Shown here: positions 4,061 through 41,590 of the stretch, in pieces
How the letters are laid out: the number at the start of each line of letters is the position of its first letter
How positions within the stretch are numbered: position 1 is the first letter of the stretch
NCBI GenBank assembly: GCA_963727625.1
Contig: CAVSHR010000002.1
Coordinates: forward strand, 352,001-416,000
Reading direction: 5' to 3'
DNA from: an uncultured delta proteobacterium
GTDB lineage: Bacteria > Desulfobacterota > Binatia > UBA9968
DNA length: 64,000 bases
The notes under the pieces: model-generated
What the model was told of the DNA's origin: nothing
Database searches by the model: none
Seen by the model: only the letters and a program-made list of their open reading frames with translations
Program-made: the position numbers and the translations under genes

Positions 4061-4420
4061 TCATCGCCACGCGGGCTTTGGTGAATCGCTCACGAAAAAC
4101 CCAAAGTTAGAGATGCCTATGATTTCGGCGACCACGGAACGGATTTCTTCGTATTTCTTCAAGGTCGCTTCATTGTTGCCGAACTTGTCCATGTTTTCAT
4201 TGCCCTTTTGCCCCAAGTCGACAGCGCGGACAAATACAAAAGGATTTGCCGCGCCGACCATGGAAACTTCCAGCGCGTCCAAAGCGGGAAATTTTACCGC
4301 TTCTCTAACTTTTCCGGTGGGCAAGGGTTTACCAGCGACCGAACCGCCCGAACCGATGAAGTGGAACGTGCCATCGCTATGGAACTCGCGGTCCCTGACT
4401 TCAAACTCGGTTAGGATACC
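4061..4420 (-). pseudogene. PrpF/AcnD-accessory (DAP-epimerase-like isomerase) fragment
   Basis: Reads GSGGSVAGKPLPTGK...VSMVGAANPFVFVRAVDLG...YEEIRS, matching the PrpF internal motif. Both termini are missing. Confidence 0.6.
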
Positions 4421-4563
4421 TATCTAGGCAAATCGTTTTCCCGGAAAGAAAATCGGCTTGCTGCTTCCGCCCCGTAAATCGCACATGGAAATTTCATAGG
4501 GCTCCTGCGTCGTTGATGCGGCGCTCAACGTATAAACCTTTGCCACGGCTTTCAAACACTTGA

Positions 4564-5115
4564 TTAATGGGCTGCGTCGACTATCACTTCATCGGCTCGA
4601 TCGACTTCTTTTAGCTTCACTTGCACATTTTTGCCGGACGGTAGAGCGATTTTCTTGCCGACATAACTGGCGGCAATGGGCAGCTCCCGGCCGCCGCGGT
4701 CGATCATGACCGCGAGATGGATCATGCGCGGCCGCCCAAGGTCGATCAGATGGTCCACTGCGGCGCGCGCGGTCCGTCCGGTATTTAGCACGTCGTCGAA
4801 CAGCACGACTATCTTGTTGGCGATGTCGAAGGGAATCCGCGTGTGGTCGATGGTGCCGCCGGGCAAGAGCGAGTTCAGATCGTCGCGATATAACGTGATG
4901 TCCATTTCGCCGACTGGAATCTCTTTGCCGTGGCGCTTTTTGATCAGCTGTGCAAGGCGCTTGGCGAGATAAGGACCGCGCGTGCGCACGCCGATAAACA
5001 CCACCTGATCGAGATCGCCGTACTGGCGCGCCATCTCCCGGCTGAAACGCTCCAGTATCGCTTTGATTTGCATGGCGCTGAGAATCCGTTTTTTCTTGGC
5101 CTCAGAGTTTTTCAT
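4564..5115 (-). CDS. pyrR: Bifunctional pyrimidine regulator/uracil phosphoribosyltransferase PyrR
   Basis: GVRTRG, DITLYRDDL, DDVLNTGRTARAA, DRGGRELPI. Confidence 0.93.
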   Translation of the reverse strand: MKNSEAKKKRILSAMQIKAILERFSREMARQYGDLDQVVFIGVRTRGPYLAKRLAQLIKKRHGKEIPVGEMDITLYRDDLNSLLPGGTIDHTRIPFDIANKIVVLFDDVLNTGRTARAAVDHLIDLGRPRMIHLAVMIDRGGRELPIAASYVGKKIALPSGKNVQVKLKEVDRADEVIVDAAH

Positions 5116-6391
5116 TAGCCACTCGAATCATGGTCTCCATCAGCAATTGGGCGCCGAGGGCGATATCCGCGGAATCGGTCCACTCCAGCGGGTTATGACT
5201 GATGCCGCGCCGGCTCGGCACGAAGATCATTCCTGCTCGTGTGATCTTAGCCATCTGCATGGCGTCATGGCCGGCGCCCGACGGCATGATCTCATAGTCG
5301 ATCCCTTTCTCGTCGCACAGCCGCCTGCTCACACGCAGCAAGCGATCGTCCATCGGCACCGGGTCTTCCTCGCGGATTTTCAAGACTTCAACGGCTACAG
5401 CGCGCTGCCGGGCGATGGCCCGCGCTCGTTCTTTCACCAAGCGTGCCACGCGGTTCTTCGACTCAGCCGAGGTGCCGCGAATGTCGACAGCGAGCTCTGC
5501 TCGGCCCGGCACAGCATTAATGACCCCAGGTTCGAGCTTCATTGCCCCCACCGTGCCGACAACCCGGCCTTTGCTCATGGAAGAATTTTTCCGGCAGACT
5601 TGTTCGACATATTGGATCAATTGCGCCGCCGCGACCAGAGCATCCTTGCGCATTTCCATCGGCGTGGTTCCCGAGTGATCGGTGCGGCCTTTGAAAATCA
5701 CGCGGAAGCGGCTCGGCGCCGCGATCGATGTTACCAAACCGATTCTCTTTCGTTTCGCCTCGAGGATCGGACCCTGCTCGATATGGAGCTCCAAATAGGC
5801 CTTAAGACTTTCAGGGCTGCGCTTGAGGCCATGCAAGTTTCGTCGAAATATGCCGAGACCGGCGAGCACGTCCGCCAGCTTCGTGCCCTCGGGATCGACC
5901 GCGTTGGTCAAGTCTTTGGGGTGCACTTCGCCGGCGACCAGGCTGCTGCCCAAGGTTGAGAAGCCGAAACGACTCGACTCTTCACCGACGAAGCAGATCA
6001 CCTCGAGGGGCGAGCGCACGGCGATGTGATTCTCTTTGATCGTCCGCACCGCTTCGAGGGCGCCGATCACTCCGACCGGTCCGTCGTATTTGCCGCCGTG
6101 GATGACCGTGTCGAGATGCGAGCCGGAGGTGACCGCTGGCGCCCGCGGATTGTTGCCATCGAAACGGCCGAAGATGTTGCCGATCGCGTCGATGTGGATC
6201 TTGAGCCCAGCCTGGCGCATTAAGTGGATTAGCAGCTGGCGACTGCGCAGCTCTTTGATGGAAAAAACCAGGCGGGTAACCGATCCGCGATCACCGATGC
6301 CGATGCGCCCGATGGCGTTCAGGTCGTGCATCAGCCGCCGCTTGTTGATGGCGGTATATTTCGCTGCTGCGGGGTGCCGATCTGGCTTCAT
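5102..6391 (-). CDS. Zn-dependent M20 hydrolase (allantoate amidohydrolase / N-carbamoyl-amino-acid hydrolase family)
   Basis: GSHLDTV..GGKYDG, GEESSRF, ELHIEQGP, HSGTTPM, SGAGHDA, GISHNPLE. Confidence 0.92.
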   Translation of the reverse strand: MKPDRHPAAAKYTAINKRRLMHDLNAIGRIGIGDRGSVTRLVFSIKELRSRQLLIHLMRQAGLKIHIDAIGNIFGRFDGNNPRAPAVTSGSHLDTVIHGGKYDGPVGVIGALEAVRTIKENHIAVRSPLEVICFVGEESSRFGFSTLGSSLVAGEVHPKDLTNAVDPEGTKLADVLAGLGIFRRNLHGLKRSPESLKAYLELHIEQGPILEAKRKRIGLVTSIAAPSRFRVIFKGRTDHSGTTPMEMRKDALVAAAQLIQYVEQVCRKNSSMSKGRVVGTVGAMKLEPGVINAVPGRAELAVDIRGTSAESKNRVARLVKERARAIARQRAVAVEVLKIREEDPVPMDDRLLRVSRRLCDEKGIDYEIMPSGAGHDAMQMAKITRAGMIFVPSRRGISHNPLEWTDSADIALGAQLLMETMIRVANEKL

Positions 6392-6514
6392 TCCCGATTA
6401 TAATACCAGCTTCTCCGGGCGCTGAAAATCCGGTCTCCTGCCGGCGCACTTTATTGGAAAGGACGAACCGCTGTGTTATGACCTGCTCATCTCGTAGTTT
6501 GAAAGGTAGTTCCC

Positions 6515-7183
6515 ATGAGCGAAGTGTCCCAAAGAGTTGCCGAGATGCTGCTGTCCACTGAGTCCATTGCGGTTTACAAAGATAAGCCGTTCGTGTTTGT
6601 TTCCGGCCGCATCTCGCCGGTCTATATCGACTGCCGCAAGCTTTTGTCCTTTGCCGCCGAGCGCGAATATATCGTCACGGCGTTGGCCAACATGGCCGAG
6701 ACTGACATCGGTCTCGATAACATCGATGTCGTTGCCGGCGGTGAAACCGCCGGAATTCCCTATGCGTCTTTCGTCTCTCACCTGATTAAGAAATCGATGA
6801 TTTATATCCGCAAACAGCCAAAAGGGTACGGCGGCACCAAACAGATCGAAGGGATTCTAGAGCCGGGCAAGCGGGTGTTGCTCGTTGAAGACCTGATTAC
6901 CGACGGTCTAAGCAAGCTACGTTTCAACATCGGCATACGAGGGGCCGGCGCCAAGATGACCCACTGCCTCTGCGTGTTCGACTACGCGTCCGATCGACTA
7001 AACCAGCATGAAGGCCAGGTCAACCTGGCCAAGAACGATATCGCGCTCCACGTACTGGCCAATTGGGATGACGTTTTGGACACCGGTTTGAGTAAAAGTT
7101 ACTTCAGCGAAGAATCGAGCCGGCAAATTATCGAATTTCTCAAAGATCCGGAAAATTGGGGCCGGAAGATGGGCTTTGTTTAG
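6515..7183 (+). CDS. pyrE: Orotate phosphoribosyltransferase
   Basis: SGRISPVYIDCRKL, AGGETAGIP, IRKQPKGYG, LVEDLITDG. Confidence 0.9.
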   Translation: MSEVSQRVAEMLLSTESIAVYKDKPFVFVSGRISPVYIDCRKLLSFAAEREYIVTALANMAETDIGLDNIDVVAGGETAGIPYASFVSHLIKKSMIYIRKQPKGYGGTKQIEGILEPGKRVLLVEDLITDGLSKLRFNIGIRGAGAKMTHCLCVFDYASDRLNQHEGQVNLAKNDIALHVLANWDDVLDTGLSKSYFSEESSRQIIEFLKDPENWGRKMGFV

Positions 7184-7450
7184 CGGCGCAAGCGCGGATT
7201 TCGCTTTCCGTGTAAAGATACTACTCATAGATTCCCATCCAGTTCGCGATAGCCGCTGGTTAAATCCTTGAACGGGTTGTTTTTTCCGGAGACCGGCAAT
7301 TTCCCCGTGTAAAATTTATGCACGCGTCTCTGAATTCTTGGTGAGTTTTCTGTCGAGTCGGTGCACATGGGCATCCGTTCGCCTCGCCGACAATCTGATA
7401 GGCCTGTTTAAGTTTCCGTATTTCAACGCTAATTCAAACTCTCTCCGGCG

Positions 7451-7466
7451 CGGCATTGGTATTGCG
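7451..7466 (+). promoter_or_regulatory. Possible sigma54 promoter for the ABC transporter operon
   Basis: CGGCATTGGTATTGCG = GG-N10-GC, ~150 nt upstream of the ATG at 7614. Confidence 0.45.
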
Positions 7467-7613
7467 AATACCTAATACGATCGAAAAAACTGCCGTACTA
7501 TTCGCAAGCTCCGCCTCGCCGCATTCCTCTGCCAGCGGTTACTTGCGCCATCGTCGGCGCTGGAGAAACGTTTTGTCATCATTAATCAGGACCGACAGAA
7601 GGAGGAAACAGCC

Positions 7614-32156: not shown

Positions 32157-32894
32157 CTAATGGGTGTCATCCTCCACCCAGGTTTTCTTTCCATAATAGC
32201 CGCGCCGACTCGCGGTCATGACGAATTTTTGGAATTGCCGGTCATCTCGGTACTTAGCCATATCGTATCGCTCGTAGTGGGTCATCTCATCTACCTCTCG
32301 CCGCGGCCGAGCCGGAATGGGGCGACTGGCATAGCCCAGTGGGATGAGGTGATAAATTCTAAGCGGCTCCGGAACTCCGAGTAGAACTTTCAGCAGGGTT
32401 TCCATATAGACCGAGCTAGCGTCGCTAACATACTGGGTTGCCAAGCCGAGGGAGGTAGCCGCGAGATGAATTAACAATGTGGCGCTGGCCAGGCCTGTGT
32501 AGAAATGAGAATCGGCTTTGTCCAACATGGTCCTGACGGGATAGGTCTCTTTCACCCTGGGATCGCCCAAGATCATGATATGAATCGGCGCATGCCGAAA
32601 GCCGTCGCCGGTCATCTTAGCGTCCCCCCGCACCGCCATTTCCATCTCCTTTTTGTGCTCCTGCTGTTTGAGGAAGATGTCGGCGATTTGATGACGCGTG
32701 TTCTCGTCGCGGATAACGATGAACTCCCAGGGTTGGCCGTTGCCTCCCGATGGAGCCCACCGGGCGCATTCGAGAATCTTTTGGACCATTTCGTCAGGAA
32801 CATCCTTTGTCTTATCGTACCCGCGGATACTTCTCCGGTCGGCCGCCAGCTCCGTCAGAGCGTCAATGGTCATCATAGAAACCTCCCTTGGCAA
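32157..32894 (-). CDS. Nitroreductase family flavoprotein
   Basis: RRSIRGY, ARWAPSGGNGQPWEFIVI, LAATSLGL, IPLGY. The start may be ATG at ~32876. Confidence 0.9.
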   Translation of the reverse strand: MPREVSMMTIDALTELAADRRSIRGYDKTKDVPDEMVQKILECARWAPSGGNGQPWEFIVIRDENTRHQIADIFLKQQEHKKEMEMAVRGDAKMTGDGFRHAPIHIMILGDPRVKETYPVRTMLDKADSHFYTGLASATLLIHLAATSLGLATQYVSDASSVYMETLLKVLLGVPEPLRIYHLIPLGYASRPIPARPRREVDEMTHYERYDMAKYRDDRQFQKFVMTASRRGYYGKKTWVEDDTH

Positions 32895-32903
32895 CTTATC
32901 AAT

Positions 32904-33647
32904 TTAGCGTTTCTTGCGCTTTAGCGTGAGGCTGTAGCTGAAGATGTCGCTCCGGTAAAATCCCAACGTGAGCAGCAATAAATTCTTTCTGTGGAAATAA
33001 TATCTCTTGACAAAAAGTACCGGTGAGCCCGGCGAGATCCCCAGATAGGATGCCGCGTCGTCGTCGGCGAGTTTTGCTCCAACCAGATGCTTCACGTCAC
33101 TGATCGTAATAGGCAACACGGACTCGATGGCACTGGAAAGAGGCAGCGTGAGCAAGCTTCGCGGAGAGAGCTTAGTCGCGACCCCTGTCGGGACGTAGGA
33201 ATGTACATATGCCAGAGCTTGCCCGCGCGCCAATCTCGTCCGCGTTATCCGTGTTATCGTATCCCCTTCGGACAGGTCAAATTCTCTTCGTATGTTTTCC
33301 GTTGGCTTGAGATTCTCCGTCCGAAGAAGCTTGAAACTCGTGCCCTCTAGATTCAGCGTGACTAGAGTTTCCGCTTCGATCTCCAAGTTGATTGCTTGAT
33401 TGACCGGTCCGCTCCAGCTCACAAAAGTGCCCTTGGCGCGCTCGCGCCGGACGAGTCCCTCCTGAGCCAGTTGGCCCAGCGCTTGACGCACGGTGATGAC
33501 GCTCACGCCCAGGTGCCGGGCAAGATCCAATTCGCCAGGGAGCTGAAAGCCTCGACTCCATGTTCCGGAAAGAATGTTGTCGCGGATCTCCGTCATGACT
33601 TTGAAATAGAGCGGCACGGGAGAGCCCGATCTTTTGGCGAGGCGCAT
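32904..33647 (-). CDS. GntR (HutC/UTRA) transcriptional regulator
   Basis: PLY, QLPGELDLA..LGVS..TVRQAL..L..EG, KGTFV; UTRA C-terminus. Confidence 0.9.
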   Translation of the reverse strand: MRLAKRSGSPVPLYFKVMTEIRDNILSGTWSRGFQLPGELDLARHLGVSVITVRQALGQLAQEGLVRRERAKGTFVSWSGPVNQAINLEIEAETLVTLNLEGTSFKLLRTENLKPTENIRREFDLSEGDTITRITRTRLARGQALAYVHSYVPTGVATKLSPRSLLTLPLSSAIESVLPITISDVKHLVGAKLADDDAASYLGISPGSPVLFVKRYYFHRKNLLLLTLGFYRSDIFSYSLTLKRKKR

Positions 33648-33761
33648 GTCGGTGACCTATAATTCGCCGAGAGCGGTCAATTGGCGGGATCCTCCGGCGA
33701 GTGTTTTGCGATCTTAAACCATCAAAGCTCAAACTCTCGATTCAGCCGCTGACCCCTAGAC

Positions 33762-34253
33762 CTACGCACTCTGAGCCTTTCTCTTCTTGAAGAACTGGAT
33801 ATGGCTCAAGGCGTCGGCGGCAACGATGCGCCCGATGGGGCCGATGCTGTACGAGGCATCGCAGACCTTTCTGTCCGAGTCGAGGATGAAATTCGTCGCG
33901 TGAATGATCTTTCTGCGCTCTTCCCAAAAGGCACCGATCTTGTCGGCGTCTCTCGGCACTTCGAGGCCATAGGCCGCGGGAAAGGTAAGCTGCAATTTTT
34001 CTACGGTCTCTTTCGCTTTGTCGAGGGGGTCGACGGATAGGGCGACGACGTCGACATTTTCTTTTTTGAACTCTTCGATATGCGATTGGTAGTCGGCTAA
34101 CTGCCGCATGCAGTACGGTCACCAACTGCCGCGATAAAAGATGAGAACCGCATATTCACCCGTGAGGTCCCGGGGAATTCGGACAGTTCGCCCGTCGACG
34201 GTTTGAACTTCATATTCAGGGAAAAGGTCGCCAGAGTTGAGTTGTCGTGCCAT
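33762..34253 (-). CDS. Peroxiredoxin-like (AhpC/TSA/redoxin) selenoprotein, Sec at codon 45 (FYRGSW-U-PYC)
   Basis: ATG at 34253 with GGAGG RBS; reads MARQLNSGDLFPEY...LIFYRGSW, TGA at 34121-34119, then PYCMRQL in frame with ORF 33762-34109. TGA occupies the first Cys of FYRGxWCPYC. Confidence 0.88.
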
Positions 34254-34552
34254 ATGCCCTCCGTGAGAAGTTAGTGGTCAAACTTCGATATCACGCACCG
34301 TTGCAACATCATTACACAAACTTCGGGTTAAACTGCGTTGTTGTCATCGGTTCGGTTGGCCGCGTATGTTGACTGCTTATATGATTAGTAGTAGGAGGTC
34401 AATTGGTTTGCAGCGCCGGCGCGAGCGCGGTTTCGTCGAGCGCGCCGGCGCCGAATCGCCGCCGATCACGACCGAGGCAAGCTTGAACGAAAGAAGCTCG
34501 CCGCGATTACGGGCAATGACGGTTTCGCGTCGAAAACGGAAAAGGCAGGGCC

Positions 34553-34849
34553 ATGATTGATCTTTACTACTGGACCACGCCGAACGGTCACAAAATCACG
34601 ATCTTTCTCGAAGAGGCGGCGCTGCCCTATTCGATCGCCGACATGGCCAGCTATCCCTGGATCGTGCCCCATGAACGGCATAAGCAAAAGCTCGACGAGT
34701 TTTCGAACTTGAATCGCTGGTTTCTGGCCATCGGGCGGCGACCCGCCGTGCAGCGCGCCTATGAATTGGCAAAAACGATCAACACGAAGCCGACGGTCAA
34801 CGAGGATTCGAAGTCCATCCTTTTTGGGCAAGGGAGGCGCTCGGTATAA
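34553..34849 (+). pseudogene. YfcG-like (Nu-class) GST with a large in-frame internal deletion
   Basis: N-terminal MIDLYYWTTPNGHKITIFLEE..LPY fused directly to C-terminal SIADMASYPW...RPAVQRAY; only 98 aa. Confidence 0.8.
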
Positions 34850-34939
34850 GTGTGGTGGGTTTGGAATCCACCTGTCTTCGACAACCGCCCGCCCGAAGCC
34901 GCAAGCTAAGCTTAGTCTGAGCCGAAAGGAGGAAGTTCG

Positions 34940-35611
34940 ATGCCGTGGATAAAAATTATACCCGAGCATGAGGCCGAGGGTGAGCTGAAAGAAGTCTATC
35001 GAAAGATAAAAAAACAACGCCAGGATGAGAAGATCAATCAAGATCGTGACGCAGGCCCCGGCGGCCCGCCCGTGAGCCCGCCGATGTTGCACAGCCTCAA
35101 TCCCAAAGCCATGTGGCACACCGCCGAGCTTATGTGGGAGATCATGCGCGGTGAGTCGCGTCTGACCACGGTGCAGCGCGAGATGATCGCTACGGTGACC
35201 TCGGCGACGCTGCACTGCCGCTTTTGAACCGTCGCCCACGCAGAGTTTCTGCGTCAGGAAGGCGGCGACGACCTGACGGCGGAGCAGGTTAAAGACGATT
35301 GGCGGCAAATGGAGTTGAGCGGAGCCGAATACGCCATGTTGGAATTTGCCGAAAAGCTCACGCTCACGCCGAGCAATATGCGCGAAACGGACGTGCAAAA
35401 ATTACACGATGCCGGCTGGACGGATCGCGACATCCTCGATATCGTCCATGTTTGCGCCTATTTTAATTTTCGCGTGCGCGTGGTCGACGGTCTTGGCCTG
35501 GAAGTCGCCGATTGGCAAGTCGAGCGCGCCCGCGCCGGTGCCGCGCGGGCGGCAGAAATCGCGAAAGAGCGCGGTGTGACGATGCCGGCCGATCCCTGGA
35601 AAGTACGTTGA
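34940..35611 (+). CDS. AhpD/carboxymuconolactone-decarboxylase-family selenoprotein 1 (HCRF-U-TVAH, Sec96)
   Basis: In-frame TGA at 35225-35227 joins ORFs 34940-35227 and 35309-35611 into a full peroxidase-related AhpD fold (REMIAT..S...CxxU...H; FAEKLTLTP; AYFNF..R..DGLG). Confidence 0.9.
35228..35269 (+). promoter_or_regulatory. Bacterial SECIS-like hairpin
   Basis: ACGCAGA-GTT-TCTGCGT (35238-35254), loop 17 nt after the TGA; lower stem GTCGCC/GGCGAC. Confidence 0.8.
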
Positions 35612-35621
35612 GGATTGCATC

Positions 35622-36269
35622 ATGAGCTTCATCAAAGTCGTTCGCGAATCGGAGGCGACCGGCGAGCTTCAGGAAGTTTACGAGCGGACGCTCAGCCGAT
35701 TGAGCCCTTCGGTGCGCCAGCGCCGCGGCGACAAGCTGCCGCCCATCGTCAGGATTTTCAGTCTCTGCCCGGCGCTGCTCGAAGCGCGGGTCGGTTTCGA
35801 CAAGGGCATCTATCGCCCCGGCCATTCCGGTTTGGGCCGGCGCAAGGAGGAGCTCATCGCCACGCAGGTGGCGGCGCTGAGCGGCTGCCGGTTTTGAGGC
35901 ATCGGCCACGGAGAGTTTCTCCGTGTCGACGGCAAAATGGCGGTGGAGGAAGTCGCCAAAGTGATCTCCAACTGGCGCGAGGCGGATCTGGACGAACAGG
36001 AGAAGGCCATGCTCGCGTTCACGGAAAAATTCACCCTCACGCCGAGTCAGATCACAGACGCCGATATCGAGGCGCTGCGCCGGGCGGGATTCGGCGAGGA
36101 GCAAATACTTTCCATCGCCCTGGGCGCCGGTTATCGAAACTGGGTGGATCGCATCGCCGATCTGCTCGGCGTCGAAGAGGAAAAATTCGACTTCCCCGAG
36201 GAAATCTTGAAAGCTTTCGGGGTAACGCGCGAGCAGCTTCAAACTTCGCTCTACGGGGATGACCGATGA
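35622..36269 (+). CDS. AhpD/CMD-family selenoprotein 2 (GCRF-U-GIGH, Sec92)
   Basis: In-frame TGA at 35895-35897 joins 35622-35897 to 35937-36269; EELIAT.VA....CxxU...H. Confidence 0.9.
35898..35930 (+). promoter_or_regulatory. Bacterial SECIS-like hairpin
   Basis: CACGGAGA-GTT-TCTCCGTG (35907-35925), loop 17 nt after the TGA; extends via TCGG/TCGA. Confidence 0.82.
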
Positions 36270-36718
36270 GCCGCTTGCAAATGGCCGCGGGAAAGAAACT
36301 CGAAAACTTGCTCGGCGCGGCGCCGGGCGCGCTTGAAGCTGACAGCGCGATGCGCACCCTGCTGATCGATCAATTGACACCGCGACTCTACAGTTTGATC
36401 GGCGTTGTGGTCGCCGGTTGTCTGCGTTGCGAAAAGTTCGTCGAAGCTCTGCGCGGGCCGCTGGACAATACTTTTGTTGCTCAAGCCGCGCGTGATTGGC
36501 GCGCGCTTGAACTCACGACGGTGGAAAAGGCAGTGCTGGCCTACGCGGAAAAAGGCACCATGGACGAGGCTTCGGTGCGCAAAGGGGAGATCGACGAGCT
36601 GCGCGCAGCCGGTCTTAGCGATCGAGACGTGTTATTGACCGCCACCGCGATCGCCTATCACAACTATTCGATTCGCATGGCGGCGGCGTTCGACGTTCTA
36701 CCGAGTGCGGGTGAATGA
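36266..36718 (+). CDS. AhpD/CMD-like protein, Cys form (CLRC)
   Basis: AGCLRC; DWRALEL...EKAVLAYAEK; LRAAGLSDRD; AYHNY..RMA; ATGA overlap with the previous gene. Confidence 0.8.
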   Translation: MSRLQMAAGKKLENLLGAAPGALEADSAMRTLLIDQLTPRLYSLIGVVVAGCLRCEKFVEALRGPLDNTFVAQAARDWRALELTTVEKAVLAYAEKGTMDEASVRKGEIDELRAAGLSDRDVLLTATAIAYHNYSIRMAAAFDVLPSAGE

Positions 36719-36748
36719 CCTAAAACCGAAAAGGAAGGATATTCCTAA

Positions 36749-37654
36749 ATGCGAGGCATAACTCCCAGACGAGAGCAGGGCATGGCCGATCCGGTGTTGG
36801 CCGAGATGGTTCATGCTACGGGGGCGACGGAGTCGCGCCACTACGCGGCGGTCAAGCCGACCATCCAAGCCTATCGCGCCAGTTGGGTGAAGCTCGCACC
36901 CTATCGAGATGGTCCCGTCAATTCGAATCGGGTGGCGGTCGACGATCCGGTGGCGATGACCGCTCAGGTCAAGGCAAAAGCATCGGCGTTGGGCGCCAAC
37001 CTGGTCGGGGTCTGTCGTTTGCAGCCGCATATGATCGATCTCGGTTCGGAATTGCCGCATGAATTCGTCATCGCGTGCTGCGTGGCGGAGGATTATGAAA
37101 AAGTCACTCAAGGGCCGGATGCGGTCGAAGAAGAAGCCATGCGGACCTATGCGAAATGCACCGAGATCGCCACGGATCTGGCCGCCTACGTGCGCGACCT
37201 GGGCTATCCCGCCATCGCCCATCACAACGGCGCCAGCGAAGTCCAGGCGATCCCGATTTTCTACCAGGTGGGCTTCGGCGAGCTGGGCCGGCACGGCAGT
37301 CTGATCAACGAGAAATACGGCGCGAGCTTCCGCCCGGGATTCGTGACCACGGACCTGCCGCTGGTGGAAGACCATCCGCGGGAATTCGGCGTGCAGGACT
37401 TCTGCATGACCTGCAACGTCTGCCAGCGCAACTGCCCGGGCGACGCGATACCGCAGGATCATGTCGTCACCCACGGCATCAAACGCTGGCTGATCGATCT
37501 GGAGAAATGCTACCCCTACTCGCGCTTGCGCGAAGAGTACTGTCATCTCTGCGTCGACGCCTGTCCGTACATCGTGAAGTCCTATCCCGAAACCTACAAA
37601 GCCTTCATGAAAGAGCGCAAGCAAGTGGGCTACAAAACGCCGAAGACCTATTGA
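36749..37654 (+). CDS. Reductive-dehalogenase/QueG-like cobalamin + 2x[4Fe-4S] protein (no Tat signal)
   Basis: KASALGANLVGVC, LGYPA, GFGELGRHG, VTTDLPL, CMTCNVCQRNCP and C-X10-CHLCVDACP. Confidence 0.82.
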   Translation: MRGITPRREQGMADPVLAEMVHATGATESRHYAAVKPTIQAYRASWVKLAPYRDGPVNSNRVAVDDPVAMTAQVKAKASALGANLVGVCRLQPHMIDLGSELPHEFVIACCVAEDYEKVTQGPDAVEEEAMRTYAKCTEIATDLAAYVRDLGYPAIAHHNGASEVQAIPIFYQVGFGELGRHGSLINEKYGASFRPGFVTTDLPLVEDHPREFGVQDFCMTCNVCQRNCPGDAIPQDHVVTHGIKRWLIDLEKCYPYSRLREEYCHLCVDACPYIVKSYPETYKAFMKERKQVGYKTPKTY

Positions 37655-37660
37655 ACTTTT

Positions 37661-37870
37661 ATGGAAAAACTCTACGTCAACGAAATCGGCCCCGATGGCC
37701 ACGTGAGCACCGCAGGCTTGTTCTATTCGCTGGCCGAGGCGCAAAGGATCGTCGAAATGCTGCGCGCCAATCCCGAGCGAGCGGGCTATCGGTATGAAAT
37801 CGTCGAGGCGGTGCGGCATACCTTAACCGAGAAGCAGGCGAATCCGACCGCGACCGCGCAGAAGGAGTGA
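37661..37870 (+). CDS. Small hypothetical protein
   Basis: 69-aa ORF filling the operon gap; its stop overlaps the RBS of the next gene. Confidence 0.55.
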   Translation: MEKLYVNEIGPDGHVSTAGLFYSLAEAQRIVEMLRANPERAGYRYEIVEAVRHTLTEKQANPTATAQKE

Positions 37871-37872
37871 CC

Positions 37873-38424
37873 ATGCCCTATATCAAAACCGTGCCGCCGG
37901 CCGAGGCCACCGGCAAGCTCAAGGAAGTTTACGAGTCCGGCTCCGGCCCGTCCGCGGCGCGCGGCAAGGTGTCGATGATCCGCCAGGTGCAAAGCCTCAA
38001 CACTGACAACCTCGCCGCCTGGCGCGCGCTCGACGTGTCGATCATGCGCGGCGAGTCGCGCATCACCCGGCGCCAGCGCGAGATGATCGCCACGGCGGTG
38101 TCGTCGACCAATCATTGCAGCTATTGAATGACCGCCCACGGAGAGGCTCTCCGTACCGAATCCAATGACGACCCGCTGGTCGAAGGCATCAAGCAGGATT
38201 ACACCCGACTGGATCTGCCGCCCGCCGAGCGCGCGATGCTCGACTACGCTGTCAAACTAACGGTGGCGCCGTCGACGGCGAATGAAGCGGATATCGAGAA
38301 CCTACGCGCCCACGGTTTCGATGATCGCGATATCTTGGACATCGTTTACGTCATTTGCCTTTATAACTTCAACGACCGCATGGCGGACGCCACCGGTATT
38401 ACCGGGCATGATTTTTTTAAGTGA
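37873..38424 (+). CDS. AhpD/CMD-family selenoprotein 3 (NHCSY-U-MTAH, Sec85)
   Basis: AAGGAG RBS; in-frame TGA at 38125-38127 joins 37867-38127 and 38128-38424; REMIATAVS..NHCxxU..AH; YNFNDRMADATG. Confidence 0.9.
38128..38154 (+). promoter_or_regulatory. Bacterial SECIS-like hairpin
   Basis: ACGGAGA-GGC-TCTCCGT (38138-38154), loop 17 nt after the TGA. Confidence 0.78.
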
Positions 38425-38469
38425 GTCATTTATTCACCGAGCGTCGCACTCGGTAAGATTGGAGAAAGC

Positions 38470-39015
38470 ATGAGCAAGTCGCCAGGGAAGATCGATCGCG
38501 CAGCGTTTCGCGAGGTGCATAAACAGCAGCAAGAGCGGGCCAAGCAAGGCCCGGAAGGATACACAACGACAACACGAGCTGTGATCCGGCTCATTGAAGG
38601 TCAATTGAAAGAAGCCCGCATCGGCGAATATACCATCCAGTGCGACGAGGCGAAGTCGCGCAAGGGCGGCGGCAAGGCGCCTTCGCCGCTGCAGTACTTC
38701 GTCGCGGCGACGGGATTTTGAATGTTCAGTCAACTGACGCGGTACGCGTCGCAACTGGACATCGAGATCGAAGACGCCGAGATGGACATTCGCATGACCT
38801 ACGACACCCGCGGCAAGCTGCTGCTCGCGGACGTGCATCCGGGCTGCCGCGAGCTGACCTACGTATTCAAGATCAAGAGCTCGGCGCCGTCGGAGAAGGT
38901 TCAGGAGATGCTGCGGCTGATCGAAAAAGGCTGCCACACGATCAATTCTTTGAAAATCCCGGTGCCGGTGGCCGGAAAGTTGATTCACAACGGTCAGGAA
39001 ATCGCCGCGCCGTAA
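38470..39015 (+). CDS. OsmC/Ohr-family selenoprotein (PSPLQYFVAATGF-U-MFSQ, Sec84; second Cys in EKGCH)
   Basis: DE....GG...PSPL.Y..AA.G.(C/U) OsmC motif; in-frame TGA at 38719-38721; C-half contains the typical second Cys. Confidence 0.88.
38722..38762 (+). promoter_or_regulatory. Bacterial SECIS-like hairpin
   Basis: Lower stem ATGTTCAGT/ACTGGACAT; upper stem GACGCG-GTA-CGCGTC; loop 20 nt after the TGA. Confidence 0.82.
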
Positions 39016-39079
39016 AACTTAGCCAGACGCAATTGAAATTCTCTGTTGCCTCGGACTTTAGGGAATCGGCACATGATGC

Positions 39080-39158
39080 CCCTCGCAAAGGCGCAAAGAC
39101 GCCAAGTTTGGAGAAGTACGAAAGAGTTTTCTTTGCGCGCTTAGCGCCTTGGCGAGGG
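39080..39158. repeat. REP-like palindrome (CGCAAAG/CTTTGCG type)
   Basis: CCCTCGCAAAGGCGCAAAGACGCCAAG...CTTTGCGCGCTTAGCGCCTTGGCGAGGG. Confidence 0.7.
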
Positions 39159-39241
39159 AATGAGTCTTGAACTCAATCTTTTAGGCCTCTCGGACGGAAG
39201 ATCCAAGGAGCGAGTTAAAACTGGCTCAGAAGGAAGTATTC

Positions 39242-40027
39242 ATGATTGAGCTCTACCACAACGACATGTCGGTCTGCGCCCAGAAGGTGCGCTTCGCCCT
39301 CGCGGAGAAAAAACTTTCATGGGACGGCCATCACATGAATCTCCGCGCCGGTGATCAGCAAAAGCCGGAATATTTAAAGCTCAATCCCAACGCGGTGGTG
39401 CCGACGCTGGTGGATGACGGCACGGTGATCATCGAGTCCACGGTGATCAACGAGTATCTCGACGACGCCTATCCCGAACCGAGACTCAAGCCGGCGGACG
39501 CCGCCGGACGCGCGCGCATGCGGCTCTGGACCAAGCAACTCGACGAAGGCGTGCACGCGGCTACCAGCGTGGTCAGCTCGGCGATCGCGTTTCGCTATCA
39601 GAAGCTCGCCATCGGCATGGAAGCCCTCGAAGAATTTCACAAGAAAATGCCCGACCCGGTGAAGCGGGAGAAGAGCTGGGAGAATGTCACCAAAGGCGTC
39701 GAATCGCGTTTCTTTCCCGAAGCGATCATGCGCTTTGAAAAGCTGCTCGCCGACATGGAAACAACTCTGGGAGATTCGCCATGGCTCGCCGGCAACGAAT
39801 TTTCGCTCGCGGATATCGGTTTCGCGCCCTACATCACCCGGCTCGATCACTTGCAATTGCAGTTTCTCTGGGACAAGCGGCCGCATATCCCCGACTGGTA
39901 CGATCGCCTGCGCGAGCGGCGGGGTTACACCGAAGCGCTGGAAAAATGGTTCAATCCGAAATATCTGCCGCTAATGAAAGAAAAGGGGCTGGAAGCTCGC
40001 GACCGAGTCAAAGAGATCGTCGGTTAG
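39242..40027 (+). CDS. Glutathione S-transferase family protein (Cys-type active site SVCAQKVR)
   Basis: EYLKLNPNAVVPTLV, IESTVINEYLD, FSLADI. Confidence 0.9.
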   Translation: MIELYHNDMSVCAQKVRFALAEKKLSWDGHHMNLRAGDQQKPEYLKLNPNAVVPTLVDDGTVIIESTVINEYLDDAYPEPRLKPADAAGRARMRLWTKQLDEGVHAATSVVSSAIAFRYQKLAIGMEALEEFHKKMPDPVKREKSWENVTKGVESRFFPEAIMRFEKLLADMETTLGDSPWLAGNEFSLADIGFAPYITRLDHLQLQFLWDKRPHIPDWYDRLRERRGYTEALEKWFNPKYLPLMKEKGLEARDRVKEIVG

Positions 40028-40143
40028 GGGATCAGTCATTAAATTACGACGAACGAGTCACGGAAGGATAAACTCTCCTGGCCGCTCAAGTTGGCCAGAC
40101 TTCAGCTCTCATTAACGGAACGGCGCTGGAAGGCGCAACCTCC

Positions 40144-40490
40144 TCATGGCTGAATGGTCTCGACGAACCCCTCTGTCGGCACTTCATGCCCTAAGCCTGA
40201 TTCTCGGGCTCCGTGGTAGATAAGATCCGCTAGCGCAGTAAATTGCGCGCCCACACCGGTACTGTTGAGGAAGAGGGTGCGTTGCTCGCGGCCTGCTCTA
40301 CCGTTTATCTTTCCCGCGACCAGCTCGCCTAGATCAGGAAATTTGTTCCAGTCGAGATCGCGCGGTGGATGATCGCGCATGACAAATCCATACTGCTTTT
40401 CCATCGAAGAAAAGTCGGTTGAAACGTATTTATGCTCCTTCTCACGAGTATGGAAGACCACCACATCGGCCTGTGCGAAACAATCGCGTA
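40144..40490 (-). pseudogene. Ornithine cyclodeaminase/mu-crystallin family C-terminal fragment
   Basis: DLGELVAGKINGR...TLFLNSTGVGAQF.A....IY..A...GLG. The 5' part is missing, cut at the transposase element's end. Confidence 0.7.
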
Positions 40491-41590
40491 GAATCTTGGG
40501 AGAATCTTGGTGTCAGACTTATTATTTAATTATTTATTTTGCCGGCTCGCAACTCTTTTAATAAGCCGCCAATATTTTTACTCAGATCGGCTTCCTGAGC
40601 CAACCTCTCTCGCAGTCGCTTTAGTCCTAAACTCAAGCTCACCTGATCACGGCCATATCGTGCTGCTACCTCGTTGAGCTTGATAGTCCCCAATTCCTGC
40701 CCGAGGTACGCTACCACCGCGCGCACAAATGACCCTCGATGTTCTTTGGTTCGTAAATGCAGAAGTTCCGCTGCGTATTCATACCGTCGAGATACCGCAC
40801 TCTCGATGGTGCTCAGATCCACTCGTATCTTCGGCGGCGAATCAAGGTCAAGATGACGATTGATTTTATCGACAAACTGATCGTCTCCTAAAAACCTTTG
40901 CTCTTTGATATCGTAAAAATCATCGCGATGTCCCGAGCCAATGCCGTCCGACACAAACTCCTTATACTTGCGGCGCGCACGCGCCATGTCGGGCGCGAAC
41001 TGCTCTAAAACCCAGTCCGTTTGGACCACGGCCGTTCCCTTCGTGGCGCCACTGTTGAGATAGTCGCGGTGGCTGCTCCAGGGATAATCCGCCGGATCGG
41101 CTACAATCTCGGACCGAACCGGATTGAGATGAAGATAGCGTACCAGTTCGAGAAGATAAGAATCTCGATCACAGAGGATGCCTTTGTAGCGTCCCTGGAA
41201 TAGGTGGCCAACAAGCTTGTACTTGCGATTGAAGTACAAGGTGTAGCTTTGCTGCAAGCCCTGCATGATCTTGGCTAGCGGGTACTTTGCGACTTGCATC
41301 AAAAGATGCACGTGGTTGGTCATCAAGACGTAAGCATAAAGTTGAAATTGGTAGCGTCTGCCGTACTGGTTGAGCAACTTCAGATAGCGCCGCCGATCGG
41401 TATCGGCGCGAAAAATGATCTGGCGCTGGTTGCCGCGACAAATCACATGGTAAAGCGCACCAGGGTAGTGCACTCTCGGCTTTCTGGCCACGGATTTTGG
41501 AATATCACGACAGCAACGCTGAATGCAAGAAATAAATATATAAATGTCTGACACCAATTTCCCACCATTTCCCCAATTTCCCCAATTCTT
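40490..41590. mobile_element. RAYT/HUH-Y1 transposase element with terminal inverted repeats
   Basis: TTGGTGTCAGAC (40507-40518) and GTCTGACACCAA (41546-41557) in inverted orientation, with AT-rich inner flanks around the transposase. Confidence 0.75.
40526..41491 (-). CDS. REP-associated tyrosine transposase (RAYT, Y1 HUH) with C-terminal DnaA-like HTH
   Basis: GTG start; ARKPR..YPGALYHVICRGN, YVLMTNHVHLL (HUH), GHLFQGRY, YLHLNPV, YPWSS. Confidence 0.9.
   Translation of the reverse strand: MARKPRVHYPGALYHVICRGNQRQIIFRADTDRRRYLKLLNQYGRRYQFQLYAYVLMTNHVHLLMQVAKYPLAKIMQGLQQSYTLYFNRKYKLVGHLFQGRYKGILCDRDSYLLELVRYLHLNPVRSEIVADPADYPWSSHRDYLNSGATKGTAVVQTDWVLEQFAPDMARARRKYKEFVSDGIGSGHRDDFYDIKEQRFLGDDQFVDKINRHLDLDSPPKIRVDLSTIESAVSRRYEYAAELLHLRTKEHRGSFVRAVVAYLGQELGTIKLNEVAARYGRDQVSLSLGLKRLRERLAQEADLSKNIGGLLKELRAGKINN

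Follow-up and report, generated by a model that had tools for sequence, protein, structure and literature searches.

A candidate cluster of five selenoprotein genes around an RdhA-like cobalamin/iron-sulfur protein gene in an uncultured Binatia genome

Selenoproteins of the AhpD-like, OsmC-like and Prx-like families have been known since 2005-2008 from the Sargasso Sea and Global Ocean Sampling (GOS) surveys (PMC2398784), and the adjacency of Prx-like and AhpD-like genes is already in print. The same families, with the TIGR01926 model, are listed in a 2026 review, where the operons described are grdAB, prdBC and frhA-frhD-hdrA(-glpC), along with the larger SAO operon (six selenocysteine, Sec or U, genes) and Tso operon (three Sec genes and their neighbours) (PMC13188914). 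For the Binatota, the available passages of the genome paper name dcmA and dhaA as the only dehalogenases and contain no words beginning with "selen" (PMC8262859). Here, a stretch of 64,000 nucleotides (contig CAVSHR010000002.1 of assembly GCA_963727625.1; C2:352001-416000, hereafter the window) was analysed in the 6.6 Mb, 15-contig genome of an uncultured Binatia bacterium (G000). A locus was found in which five genes with in-frame TGA codons surround the gene of an RdhA-like cobalamin/iron-sulfur protein. We consider it rather probable that the locus is a lineage-specific inducible module detoxifying (halo)aromatic compounds and peroxides, and that its selenoproteins are accessory to the cobalamin enzyme, not its obligatory electron donors.

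The five Sec genes were read by translating TGA as U, which turned ten short open reading frames (ORFs) of the standard translation into five genes. An earlier note on this stretch had located the five in-frame TGA codons and their contexts, and had expected a standard reading to fragment the genes; both points were borne out, as were the read-through products. The minus strand carries a Prx-like thioredoxin-fold selenoprotein gene at 33762-34253 (163 aa, U45 in GSW-U-PYC, TGA at 34121-34119), whose product matched Pfam AhpC-TSA with 82.1 bits. The plus strand encodes AhpD1 at 34940-35611 (223 aa, C93-x-x-U96 in HCRF-U-TVAH, TGA at 35225-35227), AhpD2 at 35622-36269 (215 aa, C89-x-x-U92 in GCRF-U-GIGH, TGA at 35895-35897), AhpD4 at 37867-38424 (C84-x-x-U87 in HCSY-U-MTAH, TGA at 38125-38127) and an OsmC-related selenoprotein at 38470-39015 (181 aa, U84 in GF-U-MF, resolving C153, TGA at 38719-38721). 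The AhpD4 protein is 185 aa long from a GTG start, or 183 aa from an ATG two codons downstream. Against TIGR01926, with an NCBIfam cut-off of 81.8 bits, AhpD1, AhpD2 and AhpD4 scored 127.9, 94.5 and 141 bits, respectively, and all three contain the C-x-x-U-x-x-x-H motif of AhpD-like selenoproteins. The OsmC-related protein reached 145 bits against NF041052 (cut-off 95) and has both catalytic Cys/Sec positions of that family.

The Sec positions were further compared with those of homologues of solved structure, which carry Cys there. In the structure-homologue alignment U87 of AhpD4 corresponded to the second Cys of the CxxC motif in 2pfx and 3c1l, and U84 and C153 of the OsmC-like protein aligned with the Cys residues of 2opl/3cje. 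In the Prx-like protein, U45 took the place of the Thr in the TxxC of peroxiredoxins, which in ResA is the leading Cys of CxxC, and C48 occupied the peroxidatic Cys position. A peroxiredoxin proper is recognized by PxxxT/SxxC with the peroxidatic Cys/Sec at the C of TxxC, and the Prx-like protein lacks this arrangement; judged by the alignment, its U-x-x-C is a motif of the ResA/thioredoxin type and not a peroxidatic Sec. The earlier view that every TGA stands at a catalytic Cys position was thus correct for the AhpD and OsmC proteins, while the Prx-like U was found at the Thr and not at the peroxidatic Cys.

The genome contains the Sec machinery. The selA, selB and selD genes, with 607.5, 397.5 and 377 bits, all exceeded their cut-offs and were contiguous on contig C5, selD itself carrying one TGA. 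A tRNA-Sec was found with 76.7 bits against a cut-off of 47, and ARAGORN reported it as SeC with the anticodon tca. Across the genome 12 TGA-bearing homologues of the three families were counted, five of them in this locus, which together with selD gives at least 13 Sec genes. Elsewhere, a TGA-bearing Prx-like gene comes after an OsmC (Cys) gene at G000:C2:45663-46528, and at G000:C5:133271-137497 some 4 kb separate an AhpD-like (Cys) gene from a TGA-bearing OsmC-like gene.

The conservation of the codons was assessed in 64 related loci (labelled L0xx) retrieved with the RdhA-like protein as the query. Kinship among these loci, and among the genomes considered below, makes them non-independent, and no statistical weight is claimed for any co-occurrence. 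Among close homologues, defined by at least 60% identity and a match covering the Sec position, the aligned codon was TGA in 53 of 54 (AhpD4 20/20, AhpD1 12/13, AhpD2 8/8, OsmC 9/9, Prx-like 4/4). The lone TGC was located at a match end in a frameshifted AhpD1 copy, L043, the second match of which has TGA. More distant paralogues had 14 TGA codons, three Cys codons and one gap at this position. An internal TGA was also present in all 15 AhpD4 matches from 81 genomes of the order. The mean protein identity was 0.84-0.92 downstream of the TGA versus 0.75-0.89 upstream of it, the downstream value for the Prx-like gene being 0.92.

Hairpins were observed just past the TGA codons, clear in four genes and weaker in the Prx-like gene, as had been noted before. 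In AhpD1, AhpD2 and AhpD4 (35238-35254, 35908-35924 and 38138-38154, respectively) the hairpin consisted of 7 bp and a 3-nt loop starting with G, and began 11 nt past the UGA. Over 46 distinct sequences 99.7% of the alignment cells were paired, five cells being G-U, and shifting the 3' partner by 1-3 columns lowered the pairing to 26-65%. One pair swapped between GC and CG (34 versus 12 sequences), probably as a single event in the AhpD1 branch. Third-codon positions were invariant inside the stem and variable in its flanks. The OsmC hairpin (38735-38751, loop GUA) kept its pairing while three of seven pairs changed on both sides, as judged from the orthologues and two paralogues of the genome; the Cys-containing OsmC paralogue at C2:45906, 46% identical, was without such a hairpin. 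For the Prx-like gene the candidate selenocysteine insertion sequence (SECIS) lies at 34091-34127 on the minus strand, with an inner hairpin at 34100-34114 (ACUGC-N5-GCAGU) and an outer helix that includes the UGA. The Rfam scan of 33000-41000 matched no SECIS family and returned only a chance-level Phage_DGR RNA, located at 38558-38687 (+) inside the OsmC-like gene (27.4 bits against a gathering threshold of 50, E 0.13).

The TGA codons could instead be true stops of split or decaying genes, or all TGA codons could have been reassigned to another amino acid. Gene callers would indeed split these genes, and the whole-stretch folding z-scores were modest, ranging from 0.36 to -2.35. A decaying gene would drift, yet TGA was retained in nearly every close homologue with equal identity beyond it, the position was always aligned with a redox Cys, and the Sec machinery was complete. 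General reassignment was excluded because TGA was the terminator of 14 of the 41 long window ORFs with high third-position GC, and also ended three of the Sec genes themselves. Both alternatives were therefore regarded as very improbable. It is highly probable that UGA is read as Sec in the four genes with good hairpins, and somewhat less so in the Prx-like gene.

The central gene of the locus (36749-37654, plus strand) encodes an RdhA-like single-domain cobalamin / 2x[4Fe-4S] oxidoreductase of 301 aa, or 290 aa from Met12. Its matches among solved structures were NpRdhA (4ras, E 2.9e-51), PceA (4uqu, E 1.8e-23) and QueG (5d6s, E 0.024). The protein aligned with the C-terminal cobalamin domain of 4ras (residues 346-571) and, more weakly, with its N-terminal duplicate; this homology was relied upon, and not the single-sequence fold, whose mean predicted local distance difference test score (pLDDT) was 39.6. 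Eight Cys residues were invariant in 38 sequences (CxxCxxCxxxCP ... C-x10-CxxCxxxCP), as were Y134, equivalent to Tyr426 of 4ras, and R195, at the position of its Lys488. The RdhA core is thereby represented by a cobalamin-binding core homologous to solved RdhAs and two [4Fe-4S] motifs. Tyr426, Lys488 and Arg552 are said to be active-site residues in the 2015 NpRdhA structure paper. Features of respiratory RdhAs were not seen, as the N-terminus has no twin-arginine motif and the adjacent small product was modelled as soluble, not as the membrane anchor RdhB. By these sequence features the protein resembles the catabolic NpRdhA type and not the respiratory type. The earlier description as RdhA/QueG-like was right in that a true homologue of cobalamin/Fe-S reductive dehalogenases was found; the score against the QueG model TIGR00276 was 40.3 bits versus a cut-off of 200. 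The QueG identity, suggested by a tmk-holB-metG neighbourhood in one clade, was rejected since the true QueG of this genome lies at C4:1264286-1265284 and scores 393.8 bits.

The RdhA-like family comprises 789 database proteins at E up to 1e-10 and is abundant in metagenomes, where its members carry source names such as "ferredoxin", "epoxyqueuosine reductase" and "4Fe-4S dicluster domain-containing protein". Its status as a core gene of the lineage was considered and rejected, since at E up to 1e-60 it was present in one of 201 sampled genomes of the phylum (G000 only), nine of 151 of the class and 41 of 81 of the order. Five longer homologues were NpRdhA- or BhbA-like, and no form fused to an AhpD/CMD domain was found among them. 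Copies 70-93% identical occur in L026, L030, L031, L033, L038, L044 and L065, filed under Verrucomicrobiota, Acidobacteria, Steroidobacteraceae and Bipolaricaulia metagenome-assembled genomes (MAGs); for these odd placements mis-binning seems more likely than transfer. L016 (195-2056) contains a tandem pair of RdhA-like genes with 92% and 79% identity. A second RdhA-like cluster lies on the contig of the window (L082, G000:C2:603169-615900; genes at 4203-7517, minus strand). There, a 438-aa RdhA paralogue is followed by a split form, with a 206-aa cobalamin-type domain ending at TGA, and then by a ferredoxin with a fused C-terminal domain that is resembled by a 135-aa gene product upstream. 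The TGA, lying inside a match to the reductive dehalogenase (RDH) model, was tried as a Sec codon and rejected; it is the ordinary stop of a split gene, and no Sec codon was seen in that cluster.

A conserved small protein of 69 aa (37661-37870, plus strand; motif STVGLFYS, core of about 50 aa) is encoded directly after the RdhA-like gene. When the loci were split by the identity of their RdhA-like protein to the window copy, 34 of 35 at 76% identity or more had the small ORF within 400 nt after the gene, as did 22 of the 26 below that value. The conserved partner proteins are 50-70 aa long. The small protein was modelled as beta-beta-alpha-beta with a pLDDT of about 90 over residues 1-50. Neither Pfam nor NCBIfam had a family for it, its matches in the protein atlas were all unnamed clusters, and the fold search returned no match at E up to 0.001, its best hit, PaaB (3egr, E 0.088), being a lead only.

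The plus-strand genes appear to form a tight operon, as had been stated in the earlier note, with gaps of 6-45 nt and 4-nt overlaps at AhpD2/AhpD3 (ATGA) and at the small ORF/AhpD4 junction. Because of this overlap and these gaps, the genes are taken to be translated from one transcript. Between AhpD2 and the RdhA-like gene lies AhpD3 (36266-36718, 150 aa), a short Cys-only AhpD-like paralogue; it scored 47.7 bits against TIGR01926, under the cut-off, and its CLRC motif is without the following His. Orthologues of AhpD3, with 62-77% identity, were found in 11 loci. Searches of RNA sequencing runs yielded none containing the stretch; four soil DNA runs held small shares of it.

The linkage of the selenoprotein genes to the RdhA-like gene was then examined across the related loci. 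In the group with at least 76% identity, an AhpD4 homologue followed the RdhA-like gene and small ORF in 22 of 33 loci, 20 of them full length with TGA and two being fragments (L025 and L027). AhpD1-3 stood upstream of the RdhA-like gene in 13 of 29 loci of the same group, at least one Sec gene was present in 27 of 37 close loci, and six Sec genes were counted in each of L015, L023 and L048. Other Sec paralogues, Prx-like and OsmC-like, adjoined the RdhA-like gene and small ORF in L025, L034, L051 and L076. A fourth AhpD-like Sec paralogue, 37-42% identical to AhpD2 and having SY-U-TVAH and the same hairpin, was found in L016, L023, L029, L035 and L039; it lies between AhpD4 and OsmC in L016, L023 and L035 and is absent from the window. 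Below 76% identity, AhpD4 followed the RdhA-like gene in none of 26 loci, and the RdhA-like/small-protein pair was located between tmk-holB-metG and pilin genes. Five complete chromosomes of this group all have selA, and an AhpD4 match, or any TIGR01926 match over the cut-off, was found in none of them. L020 is syntenic with the window (UbiD ... RdhA-like gene, small ORF, glutathione S-transferase ... luciferase-like, Haem_oxygenas_2) and contains no Sec genes. L021 and L023 belong to one MAG, the latter with six Sec genes and the former with none.

Within the 81-genome sample of the order, where an RdhA-like match was likewise called at E up to 1e-60, the RdhA-like gene was present in 41 genomes and AhpD4 in 14; both were found in nine, the RdhA-like gene only in 32, AhpD4 only in five and neither in 35. 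Recomputing the counts without G402 and G407, flagged as unpublished, gave 40 and 13 of 79 genomes, respectively, with both in nine, the RdhA-like gene only in 31, AhpD4 only in four and neither in 35. The two genes were adjacent in all nine genomes holding both. In G366, one of the genomes with AhpD4 only, AhpD4 starts 209 nt from the contig end, and the RdhA-like gene may be cut off. AhpD4 without an RdhA-like gene within 5 kb upstream was also recorded in L095 and L098. A tree of 52 RdhA-like sequences was analysed, 13 of the 64 loci being left out for partial or frameshifted matches or for less than 1 kb of downstream sequence. Of the 25 rows of one clade, 18 had AhpD4 and 7 did not; two further rows had it as well, and a supported clade of 21 rows was entirely without it. 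The distribution fits one gain of AhpD4 followed by several losses.

A GntR/HutC-type regulator with a helix-turn-helix domain and a UTRA effector domain (32904-33647, minus strand; Pfam GntR 60.9 and UTRA 78.4 bits) is encoded beside the Prx-like gene and, judged by its position, probably regulates the locus. Orthologues with 56-70% identity stand beside the operon in nine loci (L014, L015, L023, L029, L036, L048, L073, L077 and the window). In L014 and L077, where gntR and AhpD1 diverge, the DNA between them was noticed to contain an AT-rich stretch resembling a palindrome, TTGACTACT ... AGTAGT, some 100-160 nt upstream of AhpD1; it may be an operator there and does not occur in the window.

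Based on these data, which show the Sec decoding signals, the family assignments and the gene order with its conservation, we favour the following mechanism, in which we infer the substrates, the regulation and the protein contacts. The five UGA codons are very probably decoded as Sec by means of the hairpins just downstream, and the products are three AhpD-like proteins with CxxU, a thioredoxin-fold protein with UxxC and an OsmC-like peroxidase (U84, resolving Cys153). The OsmC-like selenolate would reduce organic hydroperoxides, the CxxU and UxxC proteins would hand on reducing equivalents by selenol/thiol-disulfide exchange, and the glutathione S-transferase (GST) encoded downstream may take care of electrophiles. 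The selenoprotein genes would be co-transcribed with those of the RdhA-like enzyme and its partner protein, and the enzyme, using cobalamin and two [4Fe-4S] clusters, probably has as its substrate a phenolic compound that it reduces and that is halogenated or activated in some other way. The selenoproteins would then be protective, or would deal with by-products.

Several observations weigh against this proposal. The RdhA-like protein scored 119.4 bits against TIGR02486, where the cut-off is 160.35, and 115.2 bits in the genome-wide search, also under it; dehalogenation is suggested and not assigned because the score is under the curated RDH cut-off. The Prx-like hairpin, although conserved in the consensus fold of six sequences, showed no covariation and had a single-sequence z-score of 0.36, so that SECIS support for this gene appears weak. 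The GntR protein is proposed as the regulator solely from the position of its gene. A search upstream of AhpD1 yielded no conserved operator; only the ribosome-binding site was conserved there and only GC-rich inverted repeats were seen, and the numbers of promoter- and terminator-like sites, 6 and 12, were not above expectation (means of 3.7 and 9.1 in shuffled sequences). Two further points concern the coupling of the genes. The recurrence of different Sec redox genes beside the RdhA-like gene and small ORF also fits a closer coupling than was assumed. The AhpD4 label requires seven changes on the RdhA-like tree, four of them forced by well-supported branches, and a single inherited insertion is possible.

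The genes may also be mere neighbours, an ordinary antioxidant Sec set for the reduction of peroxides and disulfides having been inserted in one lineage around an unrelated RdhA-like/small-protein pair with which it shares no pathway. This is what one would expect from the pair standing alone near tmk-holB-metG and pilin genes in the more distant loci, from the selA-bearing complete chromosomes with no TIGR01926 protein over the cut-off, and from L020, which is syntenic but without Sec genes. AhpD4 likewise occurs without the RdhA-like gene (L095, L098 and five of the 14 AhpD4-positive genomes), and Sec Prx-like, AhpD and OsmC genes cluster elsewhere in the genome without it. Such an insertion sits poorly with the small ORF/AhpD4 overlap and the short plus-strand gaps, and with the invariable adjacency of the two genes where both are present; the differing Sec paralogues beside the RdhA-like gene in L025, L034, L051 and L076 are less likely to stem from a single accidental insertion. 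We regard mere neighbourhood as rather unlikely. The opposite proposal, in line with the earlier note, is that the Sec proteins are an electron or substrate relay required by the cobalamin/Fe-S enzyme and constitute a new reductive dehalogenation or detoxification system. It draws on the tight operon, the order RdhA-like gene, small ORF, AhpD4(Sec) kept in 20 full-length cases, the occurrence of up to six Sec genes in L015, L023 and L048, the adjoining second dehalogenase-type homologue of the iodotyrosine deiodinase (IYD)/BluB-like branch, and the operon having no ferredoxin, flavodoxin or reductase gene that could feed the Fe-S clusters. A required relay is contradicted by the 32 of 41 RdhA-like-positive genomes of the order without an AhpD4 orthologue, by several rows inside the AhpD4-bearing clade without AhpD4, and by the five longer homologues, none fused to a CMD/AhpD domain; from general chemistry, two-electron selenol/thiol carriers would also be an odd match for one-electron [4Fe-4S] clusters. 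We consider it improbable.

The designation of the locus as an undescribed selenium-dependent reductive system was not upheld, given the absence of AhpD4 from all loci below 76% identity and from most genomes of the order with the RdhA-like gene, the cases of AhpD4 without that gene, the missing fusion, and families and multi-Sec operons that are in print. What remained of the neighbourhood argument is that the locus recurs in relatives with constant adjacency of the two genes; its weak part is that the RdhA-like gene often occurs without these selenoproteins in relatives. A narrower possibility is that an NpRdhA-type cobalamin enzyme, with its partner of 50 aa, has within a single bacterial family recruited dedicated Sec proteins as a working part (selenol reductant, re-activator or acceptor of a reactive product), which together with the IYD-like flavoprotein would make a selenium-assisted dehalogenation pathway. 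It is speculative and quite unlikely; if true, its functional counterpart in animals would be the selenium-dependent deiodinases. The accessory detoxification module remains our preferred reading: the operon is lineage-specific, and it is plausible, though unproven, that it functions as a unit.

Further, the flanks of the locus were annotated. The minus-strand unit runs in the order prx-gntR-ntr, with the gene of a nitroreductase-superfamily flavoprotein of the IYD/BluB-like branch last (32157-32894; Pfam Nitroreductase 107.1 bits). Its nearest solved match was a plain nitroreductase (4dn2, E 1.5e-17), followed by iodotyrosine deiodinase (3tnz, E 2.6e-14) and BluB (2isj, E 2.2e-12), and the best NCBIfam model, BluB, gave 69.7 bits versus a cut-off of 150. 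Orthologues adjoin gntR in L029 and L073. A second homologue of dehalogenase type or cobalamin-ligand-synthase type is thus a neighbour of the cobalamin enzyme, with family scores under the cut-offs.

GSTs had been reported in the earlier note, and one of them proved intact. It is encoded on the plus strand at 39242-40027 (261 aa, Pfam GST_N and GST_C), set apart by 226 nt after the OsmC gene; its best solved match was LigF (4xt0, E 9.5e-23), the beta-etherase family model scoring far under its cut-off, and orthologues with 84-91% identity were found in L015, L018, L021, L033, L037 and L048. The other (34553-34849, plus strand, 98 aa) matched only positions 1-26 and 205-264 of the glutathione-dependent disulfide oxidoreductase models, its middle part being missing, and in L017 the two pieces are about 390 nt apart. 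By this comparison it appears to be an in-frame deletion remnant of a YfcG-type GST. An IS200-like Y1 transposase gene (40526-41557, minus strand; Pfam Y1_Tnp 55.9 bits) comes next after the intact GST, and the two are separated by a 106-aa ORF that matched no family (40144-40464, minus strand). The locus borders a mobile element on its GST side, because the transposase follows there.

The wider window contains a molybdenum-hydroxylase set, an amidohydrolase, an ABC transporter, a UbiD-type (phenylphosphate-carboxylase-like) decarboxylase, a glyoxalase-fold protein, a luciferase-like oxidoreductase and the IS200-type transposase. These families lend the region an accessory aromatic-catabolism flavour, which is compatible with a halophenolic substrate and no proof of one.

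The locus indicates how large a part of the redox proteome gene callers hide in a soil lineage that is widespread and uncultured, at least 13 Sec genes being present in this genome. It adds a multi-selenoprotein neighbourhood to the few described and points to an abundant "mini" relative of the catabolic reductive dehalogenases with a constant small partner. Should the selenoproteins serve the RdhA-like enzyme, dehalogenation would bring selenium and cobalamin chemistry together; otherwise the locus neatly exemplifies selenoprotein families that are known. No description of this RdhA-like/Sec combination was found in the literature search, whose scope lay outside supplements and outside Haft and Tolstoy 2025 (mSystems 10:e0141724), the likeliest source.

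Compared with the described families, whose Sec forms were individually known as the earlier note had said, the AhpD-like proteins correspond to "AhpD-like 1" (COG2128/TIGR01926), being over the cut-off of the same family model and sharing its CxxU with U at the second Cys; here, in contrast, one operon combines a short Cys paralogue with three that carry Sec. The OsmC-related protein, like NF041052 and the GOS "OsmC-like protein", carries Sec in place of the first catalytic Cys and retains the resolving Cys, while its motif is U-M-F-S and the GOS table lists UxxT (PMC2398784). "Prx-like 1" (pfam00578) shares the AhpC/TSA match and UxxC with the Prx-like gene product, whose gene has weak SECIS evidence. 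To the SAO and Tso operons, as presented in the review, the likeness is that several selenoprotein genes form one operon of a specific lineage (PMC13188914). Their families differ from those of this locus, and SaoL (NF040728), TsoA (NF045695), TsoB (NF045694), TsoC (NF045708) and TsoX/TsoY were absent from the NCBIfam matches of the ten locus proteins at E up to 0.01. NpRdhA (4ras) is the closest solved homologue of the RdhA-like protein and shares the cobalamin domain, the two Fe-S motifs and the aligned Tyr426/Y134. It is about 700 aa long versus 301 aa, the RdhA-like protein having no N-terminal duplicated domain, and the position of its Lys488 is an invariant Arg (R195) in the RdhA-like family. 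Unlike NpRdhA, the RdhA-like protein has a constant partner gene of about 50 aa and scores under the RDH cut-off. The parts of the locus are known and its selenoproteins are new members of known families; what is new is their particular arrangement.

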